Assembly (NCBI GenBank): GCA_031390075.1
Contig: JANMTD010000458.1
Span: 1 to 37,570 of the forward strand
Direction: 5' to 3'
From: Deltaproteobacteria bacterium
GTDB taxonomy: Bacteria > Myxococcota_A > UBA9160 > UBA4427
DNA length: 37,570 nt
Shown here: one piece after another, positions 5,673-32,342 of the stretch
How the letters are laid out: each line of letters starts with the position of its first letter
Position numbering within the stretch: the first letter of the stretch is position 1
Notes under the pieces: model-generated
The model's input: only the letters and a program-made list of their open reading frames with translations
What the model was told of the DNA's origin: nothing
Databases searched by the model: none
Program-made: the position numbers and the translations under genes

Positions 5673-6719
5673 ATGCAGGCATGGGTCGTCCGAGACAAGG
5701 GTCTTCCGCGAGACGTCTTCCGCTACGAATCGTTTTCCGAGCCGACCCACGCGGCGATGCAGCGCCTGGCGATGGACATCGAGGGCCTGCGCGAGCGGCG
5801 CCCGGGCGAGGCCGCCGTCGACCACTACGCCTTCGTCCGCGTGCTCGCGGCGGCGCTCGCGACTCCCGACCACACGATGGCGACCGGTGCCTATCCCGTC
5901 CCGATCTCGCGGCCTTACATCTCGGGCCAGGAAGCGGTCGGCATCGTCGAGGACACGACCCCTTCCCTCGCCCACCTGAAGGGCAAGCGCGTGATGGGAT
6001 TCACGCCGCAGCCCTTCGGCAGCTTCGCGTCCCACTGCGTGATGGCGCTGCCCACGATCTGGGAAGTTCCCGATTCGATGAGCGACGAGGAGGCGGCGGG
6101 CTTCGTGATCCCCGCCCATACGGCCTATCACGCCGTGCATCGCCGCGGGAAGGTGCAGGCGGGGGAGATCGTGCTCGTGCTCGGCGCGGCGGGCGGTGTC
6201 CCCTCTTCCGCGATCCAGCTCTGCGCGGCGGCGGGCTGTCGCGTGATCGCCGTGGCGGGCGGGGCGGAGAAGGCCGATTTCTGTCGGAAGCTCGGCGCCG
6301 AAATCGTGATCGACCACGCCCGGGAGGATTTCGCCCTGGCCGTGAAGCGCGCGGTCGGCGATCACGGCGTCGACGTCATCGTCGACTTCGTCCAGGGGGA
6401 GCCCGGGCGCCGCGCCCGGCCGCTGCTGCGCGTCGAGGGCCGGCATCTTCTCTGTGGCCACGCCGGCGGCCTGATCCCGATCCACCCGAGCGAGTTCTAC
6501 GTCCAGAACTGGACCCTCGTCGGCGTCTGCATGGGCTCGGGCTACGGCCCGAAATTGATGGAGATCGAGCAGAAGGCCCACGACGACCTGATGGACCTCG
6601 TCCGCACGGGCCGCTACCGCGCAACGACGAGCCGCGTCATCTCGTTCGCCGAGATTCCGGCGGCGCTCGAAGATCTCGCGGGGCGCAAGACCTTCGGGCG
6701 CGTCGTGGCAAAGCCCTGA
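5673..6719 (+). CDS. MDR-family NADPH:quinone oxidoreductase-like protein
   Basis: PYISGQEAVG, TAYHA, VLVLGAAGGV, GVDVIVD and KTFGRVV motifs. No obvious Zn-ligand cysteine cluster. RBS AGGAG. Confidence 0.88.
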   Translation: MQAWVVRDKGLPRDVFRYESFSEPTHAAMQRLAMDIEGLRERRPGEAAVDHYAFVRVLAAALATPDHTMATGAYPVPISRPYISGQEAVGIVEDTTPSLAHLKGKRVMGFTPQPFGSFASHCVMALPTIWEVPDSMSDEEAAGFVIPAHTAYHAVHRRGKVQAGEIVLVLGAAGGVPSSAIQLCAAAGCRVIAVAGGAEKADFCRKLGAEIVIDHAREDFALAVKRAVGDHGVDVIVDFVQGEPGRRARPLLRVEGRHLLCGHAGGLIPIHPSEFYVQNWTLVGVCMGSGYGPKLMEIEQKAHDDLMDLVRTGRYRATTSRVISFAEIPAALEDLAGRKTFGRVVAKP

Positions 6720-6729
6720 TCGGCCTGTC

Positions 6730-6898
6730 GCACAAGTCGCGACCGGCGCGGTGCACGGGATGCGAATGGCTCGCCCGACGGGCGAGCGATGTAGCTACCC
6801 GACTCGAATCGGCTCGACGACCGCTACGCAGAAGCGACTTCCGGCTGCGCTTTATTTCGCATCCCGTGCACCGCGCCGGTGGCTCGCAGCTGCGCTGA
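6730..6898 (+). repeat. Structured repeated intergenic element, copy 1 (169 nt)
   Basis: Perfect 25-bp inverted repeat 6742-6766 / 6856-6880. Conserved motifs are shared with the copies at 30287-30455 and 30532-30701. Confidence 0.9.
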
Positions 6899-6958
6899 CT
6901 GATCGGCCAATCGGGTGGTCGTGGCGGTTTCGGGTCGATTGACTTCGAGCGAATCGAC

Positions 6959-6969
6959 CGCGACTTGTG
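6959..6969 (-). repeat. Isolated inverted terminal motif (CACAAGTCGCG) of the repeated element
   Basis: cgcgacttgtg is the reverse complement of 6731-6741. Confidence 0.8.
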
Positions 6970-6982
6970 AATCCGATCCGTG

Positions 6983-7324
6983 CTAGGTCGCGTCCCGCTC
7001 GGCGAAGACGGCTGTGGCGACTCGGAAGCCCGCGACTGCTGCGGGCGTGCCGGCGTAAATCCCGAGCTGCATGATTGCCTCGCAGATCTCCTTGCGTGTG
7101 AGGCCGTTGTCGAGGGCCATGCCGATATGGGTGCGGAACTCCTCCATGCGGCCCAGAGCCCCTAACACCGAGAGCGACATCAGGCTGCGCTGCCCGGGCG
7201 CGAGCCCCGGCCGCTGCCAGACGGCACCGGCCGAACGGGCGATCAGCGCGTGCATGTCGTCGCGGATCTCCGCCGGGATCGCAAGGGATGCCAGGATGTC
7301 TTCGCGCGGGACGGTGTCGGCCAT
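6983..7324 (-). CDS. Carboxymuconolactone decarboxylase (CMD/AhpD-like) family protein
   Basis: VWQRPGL...RSL, E.RTHI..AL.NGLT..EI.E.IMQL.IYAG.PAA motifs. RBS GAGGAG precedes ATG 7324. Confidence 0.9.
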   Translation of the reverse strand: MADTVPREDILASLAIPAEIRDDMHALIARSAGAVWQRPGLAPGQRSLMSLSVLGALGRMEEFRTHIGMALDNGLTRKEICEAIMQLGIYAGTPAAVAGFRVATAVFAERDAT

Positions 7325-7383
7325 TGCGTCTCCTCGTTCGATCGAGCCACGAACCCCGACGGCGGGTCGCCGAGCGCTGCGAT

Positions 7384-9003
7384 TCAGCGCTTCGGCTCGG
7401 GGGGCGCGGGCATCTCGTCCGCGATCTCGCGGAGCTTGTTCTTGGCGACCTTCTCGAGGGTCGCGGTCGGGAAATCGTCTCGGAAGTAGACGGCGCGCGG
7501 AACCTTGAAGCTGGCGAGCTTGCCCTTGCACTGGGCGAGGATCGCCGCGGCATGCTCGGGCTCGGAGCGTTTCTCGCCGGGAGCGCGGATCACGAAGGCG
7601 ACGGGGACCTGGTCGAGCATCTCGTGCTTGCGGCCGACGACGGCGATGTCCGCGATGCCACCGACCTCGCGGCAACAATCCTCGACCTCTCGCGCGGAGA
7701 CGTTCTCCGCCCCGACCTTGAGCGCGTCCTTGTCCCGCTCCTTGTAGAAGAAATTGCCCTCTGCGCCGAGCATGACCCGATCGCCGGTCTTGAACCAGCC
7801 GTCCTCGGTGAAGGATTTCTTCATGGCGTCGGGATTGTCGAAGTACTCGAGGAAGAGCTGGACCCCGCGGCGCCCGCGAATCCAGAGCTCGCCGGTCTCG
7901 CCCTGGCCGCACGGCTTCCCCGAGTCGGGATCGACGATCGCGAACTCGTAACCCGGCGTGGGTTTCCCCATCGAGCCGACGGGATAGGTCTGGAGCCAGT
8001 CGTTGCGGGTCGCGTGGATGACGGTCTCGGTCATGCCCCAGGCGGCCATCACGCGGATGCCGAACATCTTCTCGAGGTCCGGCATGATGAGGCCGAATAC
8101 TCCGACCTTGAGCTTGTGCTTCGGCACGGGTTGGCCCCCGATCGCCTTGAAGACGAAGGGGATCAGCGAGATGTGGGTCACGCCGTGCTTCATCACGACC
8201 TCCCAGAACCGGCTCGCCGAGAACTTCGGTTGCAGCACGACCGTCGCCCCGGCCCCGAGCGCCGTCCAGAAGGACCAGCTCTGCGCGTTCACGTGGAAGA
8301 ACGGCAGGTAGACGAGATACGTGTCGTCGGTCTTCATGTCGATGTTGGCCGGGCCCATGCGACTCGCCCAGAGCGCGTTCGCGTGGGTGTGGACGACGGC
8401 CTTGGGACGCGAGGTCGTGCCCGACGTGAACATGATGCCGGCGGGGGCCATCGGGTCGGCGGCGCGGGCGGGGAGCGAATCGCCGTCGCCCTGCAACGCC
8501 GCGAAGGACTCGAGTCCGTGGCCTCGCTCTTCGGCCGTCGCCGGATCGCCCGAGTTGTCTTCGGTCACGACGATGAAGCGGAGCTTCTTCGCGCTCTCCT
8601 TCACGAGCTTCGCGAACTGCGGCTGCGTGATGGCCCCGACGCAGTGCGTGTGCCCGGCGAAGTACTCGATCTCGGCGCCGGCGCTCTTCGTGTTGGTCGT
8701 GACCCCGACCGCGCCGAGCTTCGCGCAGGCATACCAGGAAAGGACCGCCTCGGGGCAATTCTCCGAGTGGATCAGGACCTTGTCCCCCTTCGTCACACCC
8801 CTCGCGGCGAGGCCCGCCGCGAGGTTCGCGACCTCGCGATCGAACTCCGCGTAGCTGTAGCGCCGACCCTCGCCGCTCTTCGGCTCCCAGACGAGGAAAG
8901 GATGGTCGGGTTTGTGCTTCGCCCAGTGCGACAGGAGCCAGGGGATGTCCTGGCCGGCGAATTGGAAGGCATCGACGTATTTCGGATCCAACATATCCAA
9001 CAT
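7384..9003 (-). CDS. AMP-binding acyl-CoA ligase (CaiC-like)
   Basis: FTSGTTSRPK, WGMTET, GWFKTGD and C-terminal KVAK adenylation motifs. Start at ATG 9003 or 8994. Confidence 0.93.
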   Translation of the reverse strand: MLDMLDPKYVDAFQFAGQDIPWLLSHWAKHKPDHPFLVWEPKSGEGRRYSYAEFDREVANLAAGLAARGVTKGDKVLIHSENCPEAVLSWYACAKLGAVGVTTNTKSAGAEIEYFAGHTHCVGAITQPQFAKLVKESAKKLRFIVVTEDNSGDPATAEERGHGLESFAALQGDGDSLPARAADPMAPAGIMFTSGTTSRPKAVVHTHANALWASRMGPANIDMKTDDTYLVYLPFFHVNAQSWSFWTALGAGATVVLQPKFSASRFWEVVMKHGVTHISLIPFVFKAIGGQPVPKHKLKVGVFGLIMPDLEKMFGIRVMAAWGMTETVIHATRNDWLQTYPVGSMGKPTPGYEFAIVDPDSGKPCGQGETGELWIRGRRGVQLFLEYFDNPDAMKKSFTEDGWFKTGDRVMLGAEGNFFYKERDKDALKVGAENVSAREVEDCCREVGGIADIAVVGRKHEMLDQVPVAFVIRAPGEKRSEPEHAAAILAQCKGKLASFKVPRAVYFRDDFPTATLEKVAKNKLREIADEMPAPPEPKR

Positions 9004-29785: not shown

Positions 29786-30259
29786 ATGGCAATCAAGGAA
29801 GGCGACAAGATCCCGAACGTGAAGGTCAAGGCGACCGACATGACCGACATCACGACCGACACCCTGTTCTCGGGCAAGAAGGTCGTGCTGTTCGCGGTCC
29901 CCGGCGCATTCACGCCGACCTGCTCCAACAAGCATCTGCCGGGCTTCATCGAGAAGGCCGACGAGATCCGCAAGAAGGGCGTCGACGACATCATCTGCAT
30001 GTCGGTGAACGACGCGTTCGTCATGAAGGCCTGGGGCGAGGCGCGCGGTGCGGGCGACAAGGTTCGCCTGATCGCCGACGGCAACGGCGACCTGACGAAG
30101 GCGCTGGGACTCGACTTCGACGGCTCGGGCATCGGCTTCGGCCTGCGCTCCCAGCGCTTCGCGGCGATCGTGCAGGACGGCGTCGTGAAGAAGCTCGCCG
30201 TCGATGCGGGCGGGAAGTTCGAGGTCTCGAGCGCCGAGGCGATCCTCGCGGCGCTCTGA
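29786..30259 (+). CDS. Peroxiredoxin, Prx5/Redoxin family
   Basis: VPGAFTPTCS..HLPGF, SVND.FVM.AW, ADGNG and RSQRFA motifs. RBS AGGAG. Confidence 0.96.
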   Translation: MAIKEGDKIPNVKVKATDMTDITTDTLFSGKKVVLFAVPGAFTPTCSNKHLPGFIEKADEIRKKGVDDIICMSVNDAFVMKAWGEARGAGDKVRLIADGNGDLTKALGLDFDGSGIGFGLRSQRFAAIVQDGVVKKLAVDAGGKFEVSSAEAILAAL

Positions 30260-30286
30260 CGCGGACGGATCGACAGGCTGACCGCG

Positions 30287-30455
30287 GCACAAGCCGCGAC
30301 CGGCGCGGCACTCGGGCCGCGAATGGCTCGCCCGTTCTGCGGGCGCAGTCGCGTTTCGCGCAATGCAGCCGCGCCGGTCGCTGCGCTGGCACGATCTGCG
30401 GCTGCGCTTGACTTCGCGGCCCGAGCACCGCACCGATCGCTCGCGTGGGCGCAGA
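30287..30455 (+). repeat. Structured repeated intergenic element, copy 2 (169 nt)
   Basis: GCACAAGCCGCG...GCGAATGGCTCGCCC-N65-CGGCTGCGCTTGACTTCGC..., with stem arms at 30299-30323 / 30413-30437. Confidence 0.9.
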
Positions 30456-30531
30456 ATACGGCTCGACCCGCCCGAGTCGCTTGGTTGGGTGTTCGCACCG
30501 ACGTACTGAATTCAAACGAATCGAGTCCCGT

Positions 30532-30701
30532 TCAGCGCATGCGCGAGCGGCCGGCGCGGCACAGGGGAGGCGAAATCAAGCGCAGCCGGAGGTCGACTCG
30601 GCGGAGCGTACCGTCGCGACCGCAGCCGCCGAGCCGACGAGAAGCCCGTACCAGGGGCGAGCCATTCGCGTCCCCTGTGTCGCGCCGTCCGCGACTTGTG
30701 C
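30532..30701 (-). repeat. Structured repeated intergenic element, copy 3 (170 nt, inverted relative to copy 2)
   Basis: Minus strand GCACAAGTCGCG...GCGAATGGCTCGCCC-N66-CGGCTGCGCTTGATTTCGC..., with stem arms at 30665-30689 / 30550-30574. Confidence 0.9.
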
Positions 30702-30716
30702 GCCCGAGTGGGTCGT

Positions 30717-32342
30717 TCAGGTCGTTCGCATGCCGGGAGCTTCGTGGCCGCTGGCGACGACGTACTCGGAGTAGCTTCCGGGATAGACGTGGGGGCCCTC
30801 GGGACCGAGCTCGAGCACGCGATTCGTCAGCTTCGACAGGAAGTGGCGATCGTGGGAGACGAGCAGCAGCGTGCCCTCGTAGCCTGCGAGCGCGGTGATC
30901 AGCATCTGCTTCGTCGCGAGATCGAGATGGTTCGTCGGCTCATCGAGCACGAGGAAATTCGGCGGGTCGTAGAGCATGCGCGCCATCACGAGGCGGACCT
31001 TCTCGCCTCCGGACAGCAGCCCACACCGCTTCTCGATCTCGTCCCCCGTAAATCCGAAGCTGGCCGCCAGCGATCGAATGACGCCCAGACTCGCCTGGGG
31101 AAACGCATTCTCGAGGGTCCTCGAGACGGTCTCATTGCCGGTGAGCAGATCCATCGAGTGCTGCGCGAAATAGCCGAGCTTGACGCCCGCGCCGATCGTC
31201 ACGACCCCCGCGTCCGGCGCATTCGCCCCAGCGGCGATCTTCAGCAGCGTCGACTTCCCCGCGCCGTTCGCCCCCATGACGCACCAGCGCTCGCCACGTC
31301 GGATCAGCAGGTCGAAGCCGTCGAAGAGTACGCGCTCGCCGTAGGCCTTCTCGATCCCGGCGAGCCGCAGCACGTCGTCGCCCGAACGCGGGGGGGGACG
31401 GAAATCGAACTCGAGGGTCTGGGCGCGCTTCGGCGGCTCGACCTTCTCGATCTTGTCGATCTTCTTGATGCGCGACTGGACCTGGGAGGCATGGCTCGCC
31501 CGGGCCTTGAAGCGCGCGATGAAGGCTTCTTCCTTCGCGAGCATCGCCTGCTGGCGGGCGTACTGGGCCTCCTGCTCGCGCGAAGCCAGGGCGCGCTGGC
31601 GCTCGTAGAAATCGTAGTCGCCCGAATAGCTCGTCAGCTCGCCGCCATCGATGGCGACGATTTTCGTCACGATGCGGTTCATGAATTCGCGGTCGTGGGT
31701 CGTGAGGACGAGGGCCCCGTCGAAATCGCGCAGCCAGGTCTCGAGCCAGAGGATCGATTCGAGATCGAGGTGGTTCGTCGGCTCGTCGAGCAGGAGCGCA
31801 TCCGGCCGCATCACGAGGATCCGAGCGAGCCCGACCCGCGTCTTCCAGCCCCCCGAGAGCAGCCCGACATCGCCGGCGACCTGCTCAGCGCTGAATCCGA
31901 GACCGGCGAGGACCTCGTGGGCCCGGGCCTCGAGGCCGTAGCCGCCGAGGGACTCGAAGAGCACCTGGGCCTCGCCGTATCGCTCGACGAGCTTGTCGAG
32001 CTCGTCGGCACGCTCGGGATCGGCGAGTGCCAGCTCGAGCTCGTGGAGCTTGTGCGCCGCGTCGGAGACGGCGCCCGCCCCCGCGATCGTCGCCTCGAGG
32101 ACGGACTGGCCCTTCATCTCGCCGATGGTCTGGCTGAAGTAGCCGAGGCTGATGCCGCGATCGATCGCGATGCGCCCGTCGTCGGGCTCCTCCTCGCGCA
32201 TCAACAGCCGGAAGAGCGTCGACTTCCCCGCCCCGTTCGGCCCGACGAGTCCGACCTTCTCGCCGCGCTGAACCGCAGCCGAGGTCTCGAGGAAGAGGAT
32301 CTGGCCCCCGTGGCGCTTCGAGATCGAATCGAGCTGCAGCAC
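30717..32342 (-). CDS. ABC-F family ATP-binding protein
   Basis: Two NBDs (GPNGAGKS, LSGGW, LLDEPTNHLD; GANGAGKS, LSGGEK, LDEPTNHLD), an interdomain linker and no TM segments. Confidence 0.96.
   Translation of the reverse strand: MLQLDSISKRHGGQILFLETSAAVQRGEKVGLVGPNGAGKSTLFRLLMREEEPDDGRIAIDRGISLGYFSQTIGEMKGQSVLEATIAGAGAVSDAAHKLHELELALADPERADELDKLVERYGEAQVLFESLGGYGLEARAHEVLAGLGFSAEQVAGDVGLLSGGWKTRVGLARILVMRPDALLLDEPTNHLDLESILWLETWLRDFDGALVLTTHDREFMNRIVTKIVAIDGGELTSYSGDYDFYERQRALASREQEAQYARQQAMLAKEEAFIARFKARASHASQVQSRIKKIDKIEKVEPPKRAQTLEFDFRPPPRSGDDVLRLAGIEKAYGERVLFDGFDLLIRRGERWCVMGANGAGKSTLLKIAAGANAPDAGVVTIGAGVKLGYFAQHSMDLLTGNETVSRTLENAFPQASLGVIRSLAASFGFTGDEIEKRCGLLSGGEKVRLVMARMLYDPPNFLVLDEPTNHLDLATKQMLITALAGYEGTLLLVSHDRHFLSKLTNRVLELGPEGPHVYPGSYSEYVVASGHEAPGMRTT

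Follow-up and report, generated by a model that had tools for sequence, protein, structure and literature searches.

Bacterial extragenic palindromic repeats are already known as a wider kind of sequence. The arms of repetitive extragenic palindromic (REP) sequences carry an internal palindrome and a conserved GTAG, populations of REPINs cluster around a master sequence, and in E. coli the copies of REP and bacterial interspersed mosaic elements (BIMEs) number in the hundreds. Correia elements of Neisseria and ERIC are miniature inverted-repeat transposable elements (MITEs) with long terminal inverted repeats, while attC sites of integrons are recognised by their fold and possess one active strand, bulges, an asymmetric internal loop and a variable apical part. 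Bacterial genomes rarely retain non-coding repeats for long. Here we describe a family of hairpin modules of about 170 nucleotides (nt), three copies of which lie in contig JANMTD010000458.1 (C566, positions 1 to 37,570, all of which is called the window below) of the Deltaproteobacteria bacterium assembly GCA_031390075.1 (G000; 5.24 Mb, 652 contigs, 68% G+C, 96.6% complete). The family appears to be undescribed and represents an unusual variant of the extragenic palindromes, distinguished by its greater length, by conserved sequence inside the hairpin and not in the arms, by an architecture of inverted pairs, by a clear polarity of the folded strand and by deep vertical persistence.

The modules share features with several of these systems and coincide with none of them. 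They meet REPINs in having inverted repeats with conserved hairpin pairing, but their arms are without the REP-type internal palindrome or conserved GTAG, the conserved sequence lying inside the hairpin, and copies within a genome are about 70% alike, unlike the clustering of REPINs around a master sequence. Compared with REP/BIME of E. coli they are about five times longer, carry invariant internal motifs and an apical insert, are restricted to one order of Myxococcota and amount to about 10-25 copies per genome instead of hundreds. Correia- and ERIC-type MITEs are, like the modules, non-coding, 150-600 bp long, intergenic, patchy among relatives and bounded by inverted repeats, and terminal inverted repeats as in DDE-type MITEs are present (TCTCACAAGNCGCG ... 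CGCGNCTTGTGAGA at the outer ends of paired elements); however, no target-site duplication (25 clean elements) and no parent insertion sequence (IS) with matching ends was found, and each module "repeat" is itself a covarying hairpin with strand-specific wobbles. Bulged bases, an asymmetric internal loop, a single folded strand and an apical part of variable length are common to modules and integron attC sites, whereas the module termini are CACAAG/CTTGTG with no RYYYAAC/GTTRRRY boxes at the base, and the modules occur as inverted pairs or singles between housekeeping genes and not as same-direction cassette arrays. REPINs with their RAYT transposases (PMC3116915, PMC3337134, bioRxiv 10.1101/2021.07.10.451892) have, as the modules do, inverted arms that form a long hairpin with pairing kept, tens of copies per genome, extragenic position, vertical inheritance and long persistence at loci. 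REP/BIME of E. coli as 3'UTR elements (bioRxiv 10.64898/2026.03.23.713779) are palindromes placed right after stop codons and between convergent genes, with units of alternating orientation, again as in the modules, and have proposed roles in termination and mRNA decay.

All genomes compared here are metagenome-assembled genomes (MAGs) of uncultured organisms, and counts over relatives are not phylogenetically independent. Each window copy folds as a long stem around about 100 nt. In the genus this stem, P1, comprises 27-28 pairs that are free in sequence and kept in pairing, and elsewhere it reaches up to about 45 pairs with unrelated sequence. Analysis of 146 distinct modules revealed that 24 of the 27 P1 pairs had changes on both sides, that 94.2% of P1 cells were paired (81.9% when shuffled) and that cells with double changes numbered 567, against 136 +/- 14 in shuffles; none of 500 shuffles reached the observed value on any of five covariation measures, and slid stem registers dropped to 34-47% pairing. 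The stem covariation put forward in the initial annotation, which was made from the three window copies, is therefore upheld. Its statement that the inner ten stem positions stay complementary stood for copy 1 in full, but copy 2 has two C-A/A-C mismatches and copy 3 one C-C.

Two motifs inside P1, AUGGCUCGCC and GGCUGCGCUUUAYUUC on the strand of the initial annotation (the written strand), were identical in 138-146 of the 146 modules. RNAalifold pairs the two motifs together as a helix, P2, with two bulges and a one-against-four-base internal loop. Since P2 is without variation in the genus, its covariation is beyond testing there; in the short versions found in metagenomes and other families P2 often continues into an apical hairpin whose outer pairs differ (CCGC/GCGG, GTGCG/TGCAC, TCGC.../...GCGA), and 25 distinct short inserts had a mean of 2.92 consecutive outer pairs against 0.69 when shuffled. 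Some lineages thus have a simple hairpin as the apical part, where this genus has an insert of 65-68 nt whose sequence is specific to the subfamily. Among the 119 motif-matching modules of 144, insert lengths were 65 nt (4), 66 nt (59), 67 nt (40), 68 nt (15) and 71 nt (1), a measure one base longer than that first given, with the motif counted from GGCTG. Elsewhere in the order the families have shorter inserts, many of 11-39 nt, so that the fixed insert length noted in the window copies holds as a genus-level feature (65-68 nt in 118 of 119) and not beyond the genus. The small GCCC hairpin described earlier is present in all three window copies; its columns are invariant across the genus and hence likewise outside the reach of a covariation test there.

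The inserts fall into a few subfamilies common to several loci. No covarying helices were found within them, mutual information in length-matched groups tracking the subfamilies, and their folding was not more stable on the favoured strand (-19.5 against -23.2 kcal/mol). No reading frame was kept across copies: the ATG in an invariant motif opens different frames, and because its frame shifts with an insert length of 65, 66, 67 or 68 the module is regarded as non-coding. Each module also holds three direct GCT(C/G)GC-like words. A guide-like role had been suggested for the variable segment. The sharing of insert subfamilies between loci speaks against it, and BLAST of the 13 own-genome inserts against the genome returned matches at chance level only (best match 23 nt long, one mismatch, E 0.001), so that no convincing target in the host genome emerged.

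Counting of the P1 mismatches indicated which strand folds. On the written strand there were 244 C-A/A-C mismatches against 17 G-U in 144 modules, the lean toward C-A being seen at 11 or more positions and the opposite lean at none, and both halves of inverted pairs show this polarity. As C-A mismatches are G-U wobbles on the complement, the folded strand is the complement of the one written in the initial annotation. The inserts contain 1774 T against 962 A on the written strand, and the complement is accordingly A-rich; a C-to-T bias on the written strand would yield the rare mismatch type, which argues for selection rather than mutation bias. A small advantage in folding energy goes the same way: the complement averages -98.9 kcal/mol and the written strand -96.3, and the complement has the lower value in 84 of 144 modules (Wilcoxon p 0.005). 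The structurally selected strand runs outward, starting in the middle of a pair and heading for the neighbouring gene; it is antisense to the adjacent gene and is the same strand as read-through from the opposite convergent gene.

The modules are old at their present loci. The 14 modules compared in their own genome were 0.61-0.79 identical, and nearest paralogues in seven other MAGs were at most 0.89 identical, which excludes a recent spread. Comparison of flanks united loci of different MAGs in 25 synteny clusters; the pair between the Redoxin and ABC-F genes of the window is found in six species between the same two genes, with flanking genes conserved and free module positions scrambled. 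In 80 comparisons of orthologous modules, stem pairs showed 333 compensated double changes, 150 one-sided changes and 37 others, and stem divergence was 0.18-0.20 per site where insert divergence was 0.21-0.34. The classical two-step compensation model expects slower stem change, and compensation this fast suggests that strong selection has been joined by copying from arm to arm or by conversion between copies. Motifs that stay invariant while old syntenic copies are otherwise scrambled, a geometry constant to a base or two and strand-specific wobbles are hard to account for unless a sequence-specific partner exerts selection on the folded single strand today. Selection on a folded single strand, as proposed in the initial annotation, is thus borne out by the covariation, by the invariant unpaired or bulged motifs and, in the genus, by the constant insert length.

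The three window copies and their common layout were confirmed by reading them directly from the sequence. The features of both loci are as follows; strands of modules are those of the written sequence, and the parts of copy 1 were assigned from the sequence.

5673-6719, plus strand: zinc-dehydrogenase open reading frame (ORF), stop TGA at 6717-6719 (ORF list; Pfam ADH_zinc_N, E 1.5e-20)
6728-6900, plus strand as written (GCACAAG orientation), the folded strand probably being minus: module copy 1 (covariance model 175.1 bits, sequence, fold)
6730-6741, plus strand: copy 1, GCACAAGTCGCG
6742-6766, plus strand: copy 1, left arm
6767-6776, plus strand: copy 1, TGGCTCGCCC
6777-6841, plus strand: copy 1, insert
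6842-6855, plus strand: copy 1, CGGCTGCGCTTTAT
6856-6880, plus strand: copy 1, right arm
6881-6898, plus strand: copy 1, GGCTCGCAGCTGCGCTGA
6762-6776 and 6843-6860: copy 1, invariant motifs
6947-6969, minus strand: remnant of the lost partner module of copy 1 (alignment with the G022 ortholog, terminus pattern scan)
6983-8758, minus strand: convergent CMD-domain gene, stop at 6983-6985 (ORF list; Pfam CMD, E 5.3e-16)
29786-30259, plus strand: Redoxin gene (Pfam Redoxin, E 1.8e-38)
30285-30457, plus strand: module copy 2, left half of an inverted pair (covariance model 149.9 bits)
30287-30701, no strand: complete paired element of 415 bp with termini GCACAAGCCGCG and CGCGACTTGTGC (synteny clustering, six-locus alignment)
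30458-30529, no strand: spacer between copies 2 and 3 (spacer comparison, promoter and terminator scan)
30530-30703, minus strand: module copy 3, right half of the inverted pair (covariance model 151.4 bits)
30717-32342, minus strand: convergent ABC-F gene (Pfam ABC_tran and ABC_tran_Xtn)

The neighbours in the window, a zinc dehydrogenase, a CMD-domain protein, a redoxin and an ABC-F ATPase by Pfam, are ordinary genes, and the module termini lie close to their stop codons. The outer terminus of copy 1 starts 11 nt beyond the zinc-dehydrogenase stop, the terminus of the remnant is 14 nt from the CMD-domain stop codon, and for copies 2 and 3 the outer termini are separated by 28 nt from the preceding Redoxin stop and by 16 nt from the following stop of the convergent ABC-F gene, respectively. 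The same placement recurs in the family: 139 of 154 outer termini face a gene 3' end at a median distance of 30 nt, the corresponding count for single modules is 41 of 48, and where 3' and 5' contexts are mixed the terminus faces the 3' end ten times to one. Between convergent genes sit 46 of 63 elements.

The usual unit is an inverted module pair with its own terminal inverted repeat, which revises the single-module layout first described. In the two best-assembled relatives, nine inverted pairs with three single modules (G003) and nine pairs with four singles (G008) were identified; single modules are common in more distant genomes. Pair order in these two is always plus then minus with a spacing of 58-614 nt, the inter-module spacing over all pairs is 58-650 nt bar one 4.9-kb case in G031, and the pair ends in this genus read TCTCACAAG...CTTGTGAGA, while the spacers are unrelated between loci (57 pairs compared). 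Copy 1 is the left half of a former pair, the G022 ortholog carrying the full pair. In the window the inner lead-in gagcgaatcgac of the lost partner is fused directly to an outer terminus, cgcgacttgtg (6959-6969), and the entire partner hairpin has therefore been deleted.

Several irregular elements were seen besides. Solo termini or arm fragments lie 3-30 nt from complete elements at four loci (right of L035, left of L038 and L081, right flank of L098), suggesting that insertions clustered, or that decay went on serially, at these positions. On G000 contigs C588 (1-124) and C373 (272-320; loci L002 and L005) a common unique flank and terminus CACAAGTCGCGG have two different continuations, directly into a module on one contig and into a spacer followed by an inverted module on the other; possible causes are a bubble in the assembly, inversion of the element and heterogeneity among strains. 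One pair, at L113:3870-4202 (G003:C11, about 299.9-300.2 kb), contains a 110-aa DUF5076 gene (Pfam E 4.3e-27), the element being 963 bp long, when the other pairs in its flank-similarity cluster measure 400-470 bp and have no room for a gene. A 10-nt direct repeat, CTGATCGGCC, flanks copy 1 (6716-6725 and 6899-6908). As a target duplication it was rejected: its right copy overlaps the conserved module end GCTGATCG, and it is absent at the G022 ortholog and at 25 other elements, so it is probably due to chance.

A profile built from the three copies found 17 non-overlapping copies in the own genome (nhmmer), two of them truncated by contig ends; modules also break the assemblies of these MAGs at contig ends. 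A covariance model trained on 13 copies recovered 14 own-genome copies at 120-175 bits and one degenerate copy at 64 bits, and matched 23 of 41 related genomes, namely 16 of the 24 others of the genus and members of five other families of the order, confirming a repeat family both in the genome and in its relatives. When the phylum was sampled evenly, matches came from 8 of the 24 other genomes belonging to the order and from 0 of 126 lying outside it. Scanning for the exact motifs, with each species represented by a single genome, gave 94 stretches, and almost all of their source MAGs have Myxococcota, Myxococcales or Deltaproteobacteria in the title; no module match was found in viral contigs or plasmids. 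No Rfam 15 family matched at gathering score across the whole window, and a permissive scan of 30250-30740 gave flg-Rhizobiales as its best match (14.4 bits against a cut-off of 55, E 1.4), in agreement with the earlier remark that this is not a known family as regards RNA. A limited literature search on intergenic hairpin repeats in Myxococcota, which is not proof of absence, found no description of the modules.

Mobilising genes of the described systems were sought in the same genomes, and in the module-rich ones none of the RAYT, IS200/IS605, IS110 or reverse transcriptase type was found adjoining a module, these being neighbours that the initial annotation had suggested looking for. The Y1 gene (PF01797) of IS200 and of REPIN/RAYT systems, in the latter usually single-copy and flanked by the repeats, was not found in G000, G003, G008, G018 and G022, in which respect the modules differ from REPINs; among all 41 genomes it had matches in 14, and these bore no relation to the number of modules. 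TnpB/Cas12f-like genes (PF07282) occurred in 3 of 41 genomes, none of them module-rich, and the modules, being symmetrical at both ends, differ from the PATE derivatives of IS200/IS605 and from TnpB omega-RNA, with a scaffold at one transposon end, in this too, TnpA and TnpB not being found in module-rich genomes. Reverse transcriptase (PF00078) was not found in G000, G003, G008 and G022, in contrast to what a retron non-coding RNA would need beside it. IS110-family DEDD recombinases (PF01548) were represented by one gene each in G003, G008 and G022 and were not found in G000 or G014; no module lay within the 4.7-7-kb stretches around these three genes (nhmmer E of 0.23 or above), unlike the bridge RNA of IS110, which adjoins its recombinase gene.

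The three IS110-family genes sit in repeat arrays (L191, G003:C13:78500-85500; L192, G008:C19:18300-25300; L193, G022:C26:900-5649) made of 175-190-nt repeats every 500-600 nt or so, most units starting with GCCGCATAAC and ending with GTTATGCGGC, which we take to resemble the R''/R' boxes of attC. Each probably represents the cassette array of a chromosomal integron, with an attC-targeting IS in it; its sequence has no relation to that of the modules, and weak DNA matches to it occur in G000 (C292, C614, C522, C102).

IS91-family HUH genes were present in all seven module-rich genomes of the genus (G000, G003, G008, G011, G014, G018, G022), but also in four of eight module-free genomes of the genus, and were not found in the module-bearing G028, G029, G031 and G039. 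G000 has 13 matches to the Y2 HUH domain of IS91 (PF04986), in copies 75-85% alike over 1.6-1.9 kb, many with the domain split into two matched parts; they are located on C318 (about 17.7-19.7 kb), C183, C472, C557, C473, C402, C425 and C410 (loci L166-L177). Two of the copies (L169, L173) adjoin tRNA-like sequence. Two IS91 fragments lie 150-700 nt from modules, on C425 and C410. As a mobiliser IS91 was rejected, full-length copies having no module at their ends.

Evidence of movement was mixed. At the alcohol dehydrogenase (ADH) locus the element is present in G000, G022 and G014, the last according to match coordinates, and the site is empty in G008 and G003, which carry modules elsewhere. 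The module-free ADH/CMD locus of G003 (L147, G003:C11, about 312500-312700) holds a different 200-nt stretch with its own long inverted repeat, GGGCGGGGCCTCG...CGAGGCCCCGCCC. For the Redoxin/ABC-F locus, five module-poor genomes offered best matches of only 42-43% identity, which are probably paralogues and unusable as empty sites. No target-site duplication was detected in 25 elements with clean termini at offsets of 0-7 and lengths of 2-8, which did not exceed shuffled pairings; one borderline cell equalled the control maximum, and old age could have erased short duplications. In G000, G003, G008 and G031, the genomes examined, no autonomous element with matching ends was found, and no module pair encloses a transposase. 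Candidates for such an element were discarded: the single modules of G003 and G008 merely have decayed partners; a word resembling the terminal inverted repeat 1.2 kb from one single module encloses a thymidylate-kinase-like ORF (GIDGSGKSTQ motif, by eye); and the inverted modules 4.9 kb apart in G031 enclose genes for shikimate dehydrogenase, alcohol dehydrogenase and a redoxin-cytochrome protein. The REPIN- or MITE-like mobility proposed earlier is thus supported by one orthologous locus filled or empty among species, but not by target duplications, recent copies or RAYT, TnpB or reverse transcriptase genes. Terminal inverted repeats, patchiness at orthologous loci and the existence of decayed copies all suggest an origin as a mobile element of MITE type, and the family has not moved recently.

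Signals of transcription were also sought. A scan of both window loci found no sigma-70-like promoter and no canonical terminator; the compact GC-rich hairpin with a U tract that defines an intrinsic terminator is absent, the module stem enclosing about 100 nt and the tail after it having three U in nine bases. No conserved promoter motif was found in 57 spacers, and 118 anchored flanks contained only GCTCGC-N4-GYGCTGA. Six RNA runs with small shares were found, of which X15, X16 and X17 were examined as contigs, from which neither strand nor transcript ends can be read. Those of X15 and X16, two RNA runs from one study, cover bins 30294-30347 and 30618-30779 with raised depth; over bins 30348-30617 X15 has none and X16 has 0.29 and 4.22 in the first two, while a DNA contig (X1) spans the whole region. 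The locus occurs in the DNA runs X1-X6. Raised RNA depth is expected there if contigs of other family members map to these parts.

Tentatively, and at somewhat less than even probability, we favour the reading that the modules are RNA hairpins at gene 3' ends, recognised by a protein and descended from a MITE-like element. From the strand, structure, conservation and placement observed, we infer a transcript, a protein and an effect. A read-through transcript from the convergent gene would form the hairpin of the outward-strand module; a lineage-specific protein would recognise the invariant internal loop of the hairpin platform; the transcript may then be stopped, processed or stabilised before running antisense into the neighbouring gene, and the module would in this way act as a 3'-end insulator. 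RNA is favoured by a folded strand that is A-rich where unpaired, by convergent read-through that would carry that very strand and by the lack of ordinary terminators. Several points weigh against this. For a plain terminator, invariant motifs and an insert of constant length would be unnecessary; distant relatives have not kept the U-containing tail CUUGUGAGA; in the mRNA of the adjacent gene itself the module stands in the less favoured orientation; the metatranscriptome contigs touch conserved outer module parts only and give neither strand nor ends; no partner protein was identified; and the placement counts depend on gene calls by a crude GC3-based ORF picker with at least two known errors. 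In addition, G-T wobble is also the best-tolerated mismatch in single-stranded DNA, so that the asymmetry cannot separate RNA from DNA, and compensated change runs near the insert rate, which arm-to-arm copying at the DNA level could yield without selection on RNA. An unlikely extension of the favoured reading is that the modules are the platform of an undescribed RNA-protein system policing convergent transcription in this order, in which the protein would read the invariant internal loop of a long hairpin formed solely in transcripts heading antisense for a gene's 3' end, and would end or cut them there. In a bolder variant, the outward hairpins at ancient transposon ends would be scaffolds whose 3' extension into the flank guides an effector.

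The main rival, rather unlikely in our view, is a non-autonomous mobile element moving as folded single-stranded DNA, whose internal loop is read by an enzyme in trans (HUH, tyrosine or serine recombinase, or another). The motifs would then persist since only copies keeping them replicate, as in REPINs with a different enzyme. A dispersed multi-copy family with terminal inverted repeats, copies that break the assembly at contig ends, solo termini and fragments beside full elements and the filled and empty states of the ADH locus would be expected of such an element; the lack of target duplication is that of HUH and IS110-type elements, the G-T wobble tolerated in DNA hairpins fits the strand asymmetry, and IS91-family HUH genes occur in the seven module-rich genomes of the genus, two fragments adjoining modules in G000. 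However, identity between copies does not exceed 0.89 in any of eight genomes, loss of the motifs would be expected in old copies that are fixed at orthologous positions and yet they keep them, PF01797 was not found in the five genomes named above nor TnpB in any module-rich one, full IS91-like copies have no modules at their ends, IS91 presence only partly tracks the modules, and no pair encloses a transposase. Another reading is a guide-RNA scaffold, in which each module would be transcribed outward across the end of the element, with the flank or insert guiding an RNA-guided nuclease or recombinase encoded in trans, after the models of TnpB omega-RNA and IS110 bridge RNA. The folded strand does read outward and ends at a terminus beside unique flank, and some 170 nt with conserved internal motifs are comparable in length and complexity to the guide-scaffold RNAs of known systems. 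This is nevertheless the least probable reading and a very remote one, given the rarity of PF07282 (3 of 41 genomes, none module-rich), the location of the single-copy IS110 genes in attC-like arrays far from modules (none found in G000 and G014), inserts that are subfamily sequences without genomic targets and not unique spacers, spacers without a conserved promoter motif and the lack of viral or plasmid matches.

Supercoiling accumulates between convergent genes, and a duplex-DNA binding array for a nucleoid or topology protein, of the sort proposed for E. coli BIMEs, with the invariant motifs as protein sites and the arms serving cruciform formation or symmetrical binding, would account for elements between such genes, for invariant motifs at a fixed mutual distance in the genus and for the three direct GCT(C/G)GC-like words in each module; it is improbable, as it predicts equal numbers of C-A and G-U where the count is 244 against 17, as arms that are free and yet strictly complementary are a property of a folded strand and not of a duplex site, and as other families of the order have not preserved the length of the insert. 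More improbable still are functionless old palindromes in which template-switching between the arms during replication (quasipalindrome correction) mimics covariation. Such copying agrees with the excess of compensated over single differences between orthologues (333 against 150) and with a stem divergence near that of the insert and faster than classical two-step compensation, and the clean loss of a hairpin beside window copy 1 demonstrates the mechanical instability of palindromes. It leaves unexplained the invariant unpaired or bulged motifs (138-146 of 146), the constant insert length, a mismatch polarity that is relative to the module and not to replication, and retention at 25 syntenic loci against the bacterial deletion bias.

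Across species, an element of 170 nt has thus preserved its fold, two invariant motifs and the length of its insert at shared loci, with free positions about 30% diverged. Such long retention speaks for a partner acting in trans and for a role at the 3' ends of genes, in a phylum that is known at this depth from metagenomes alone. The modules are a clean, testable case of strand-specific structural selection (244 against 17 mismatches), their unusually fast compensated stem change bears on the evolution of palindromes, and the covariance model can annotate them in MAGs. The partner protein, if found, could establish a novel means by which GC-rich bacteria without U-tract terminators end or insulate convergent transcription.

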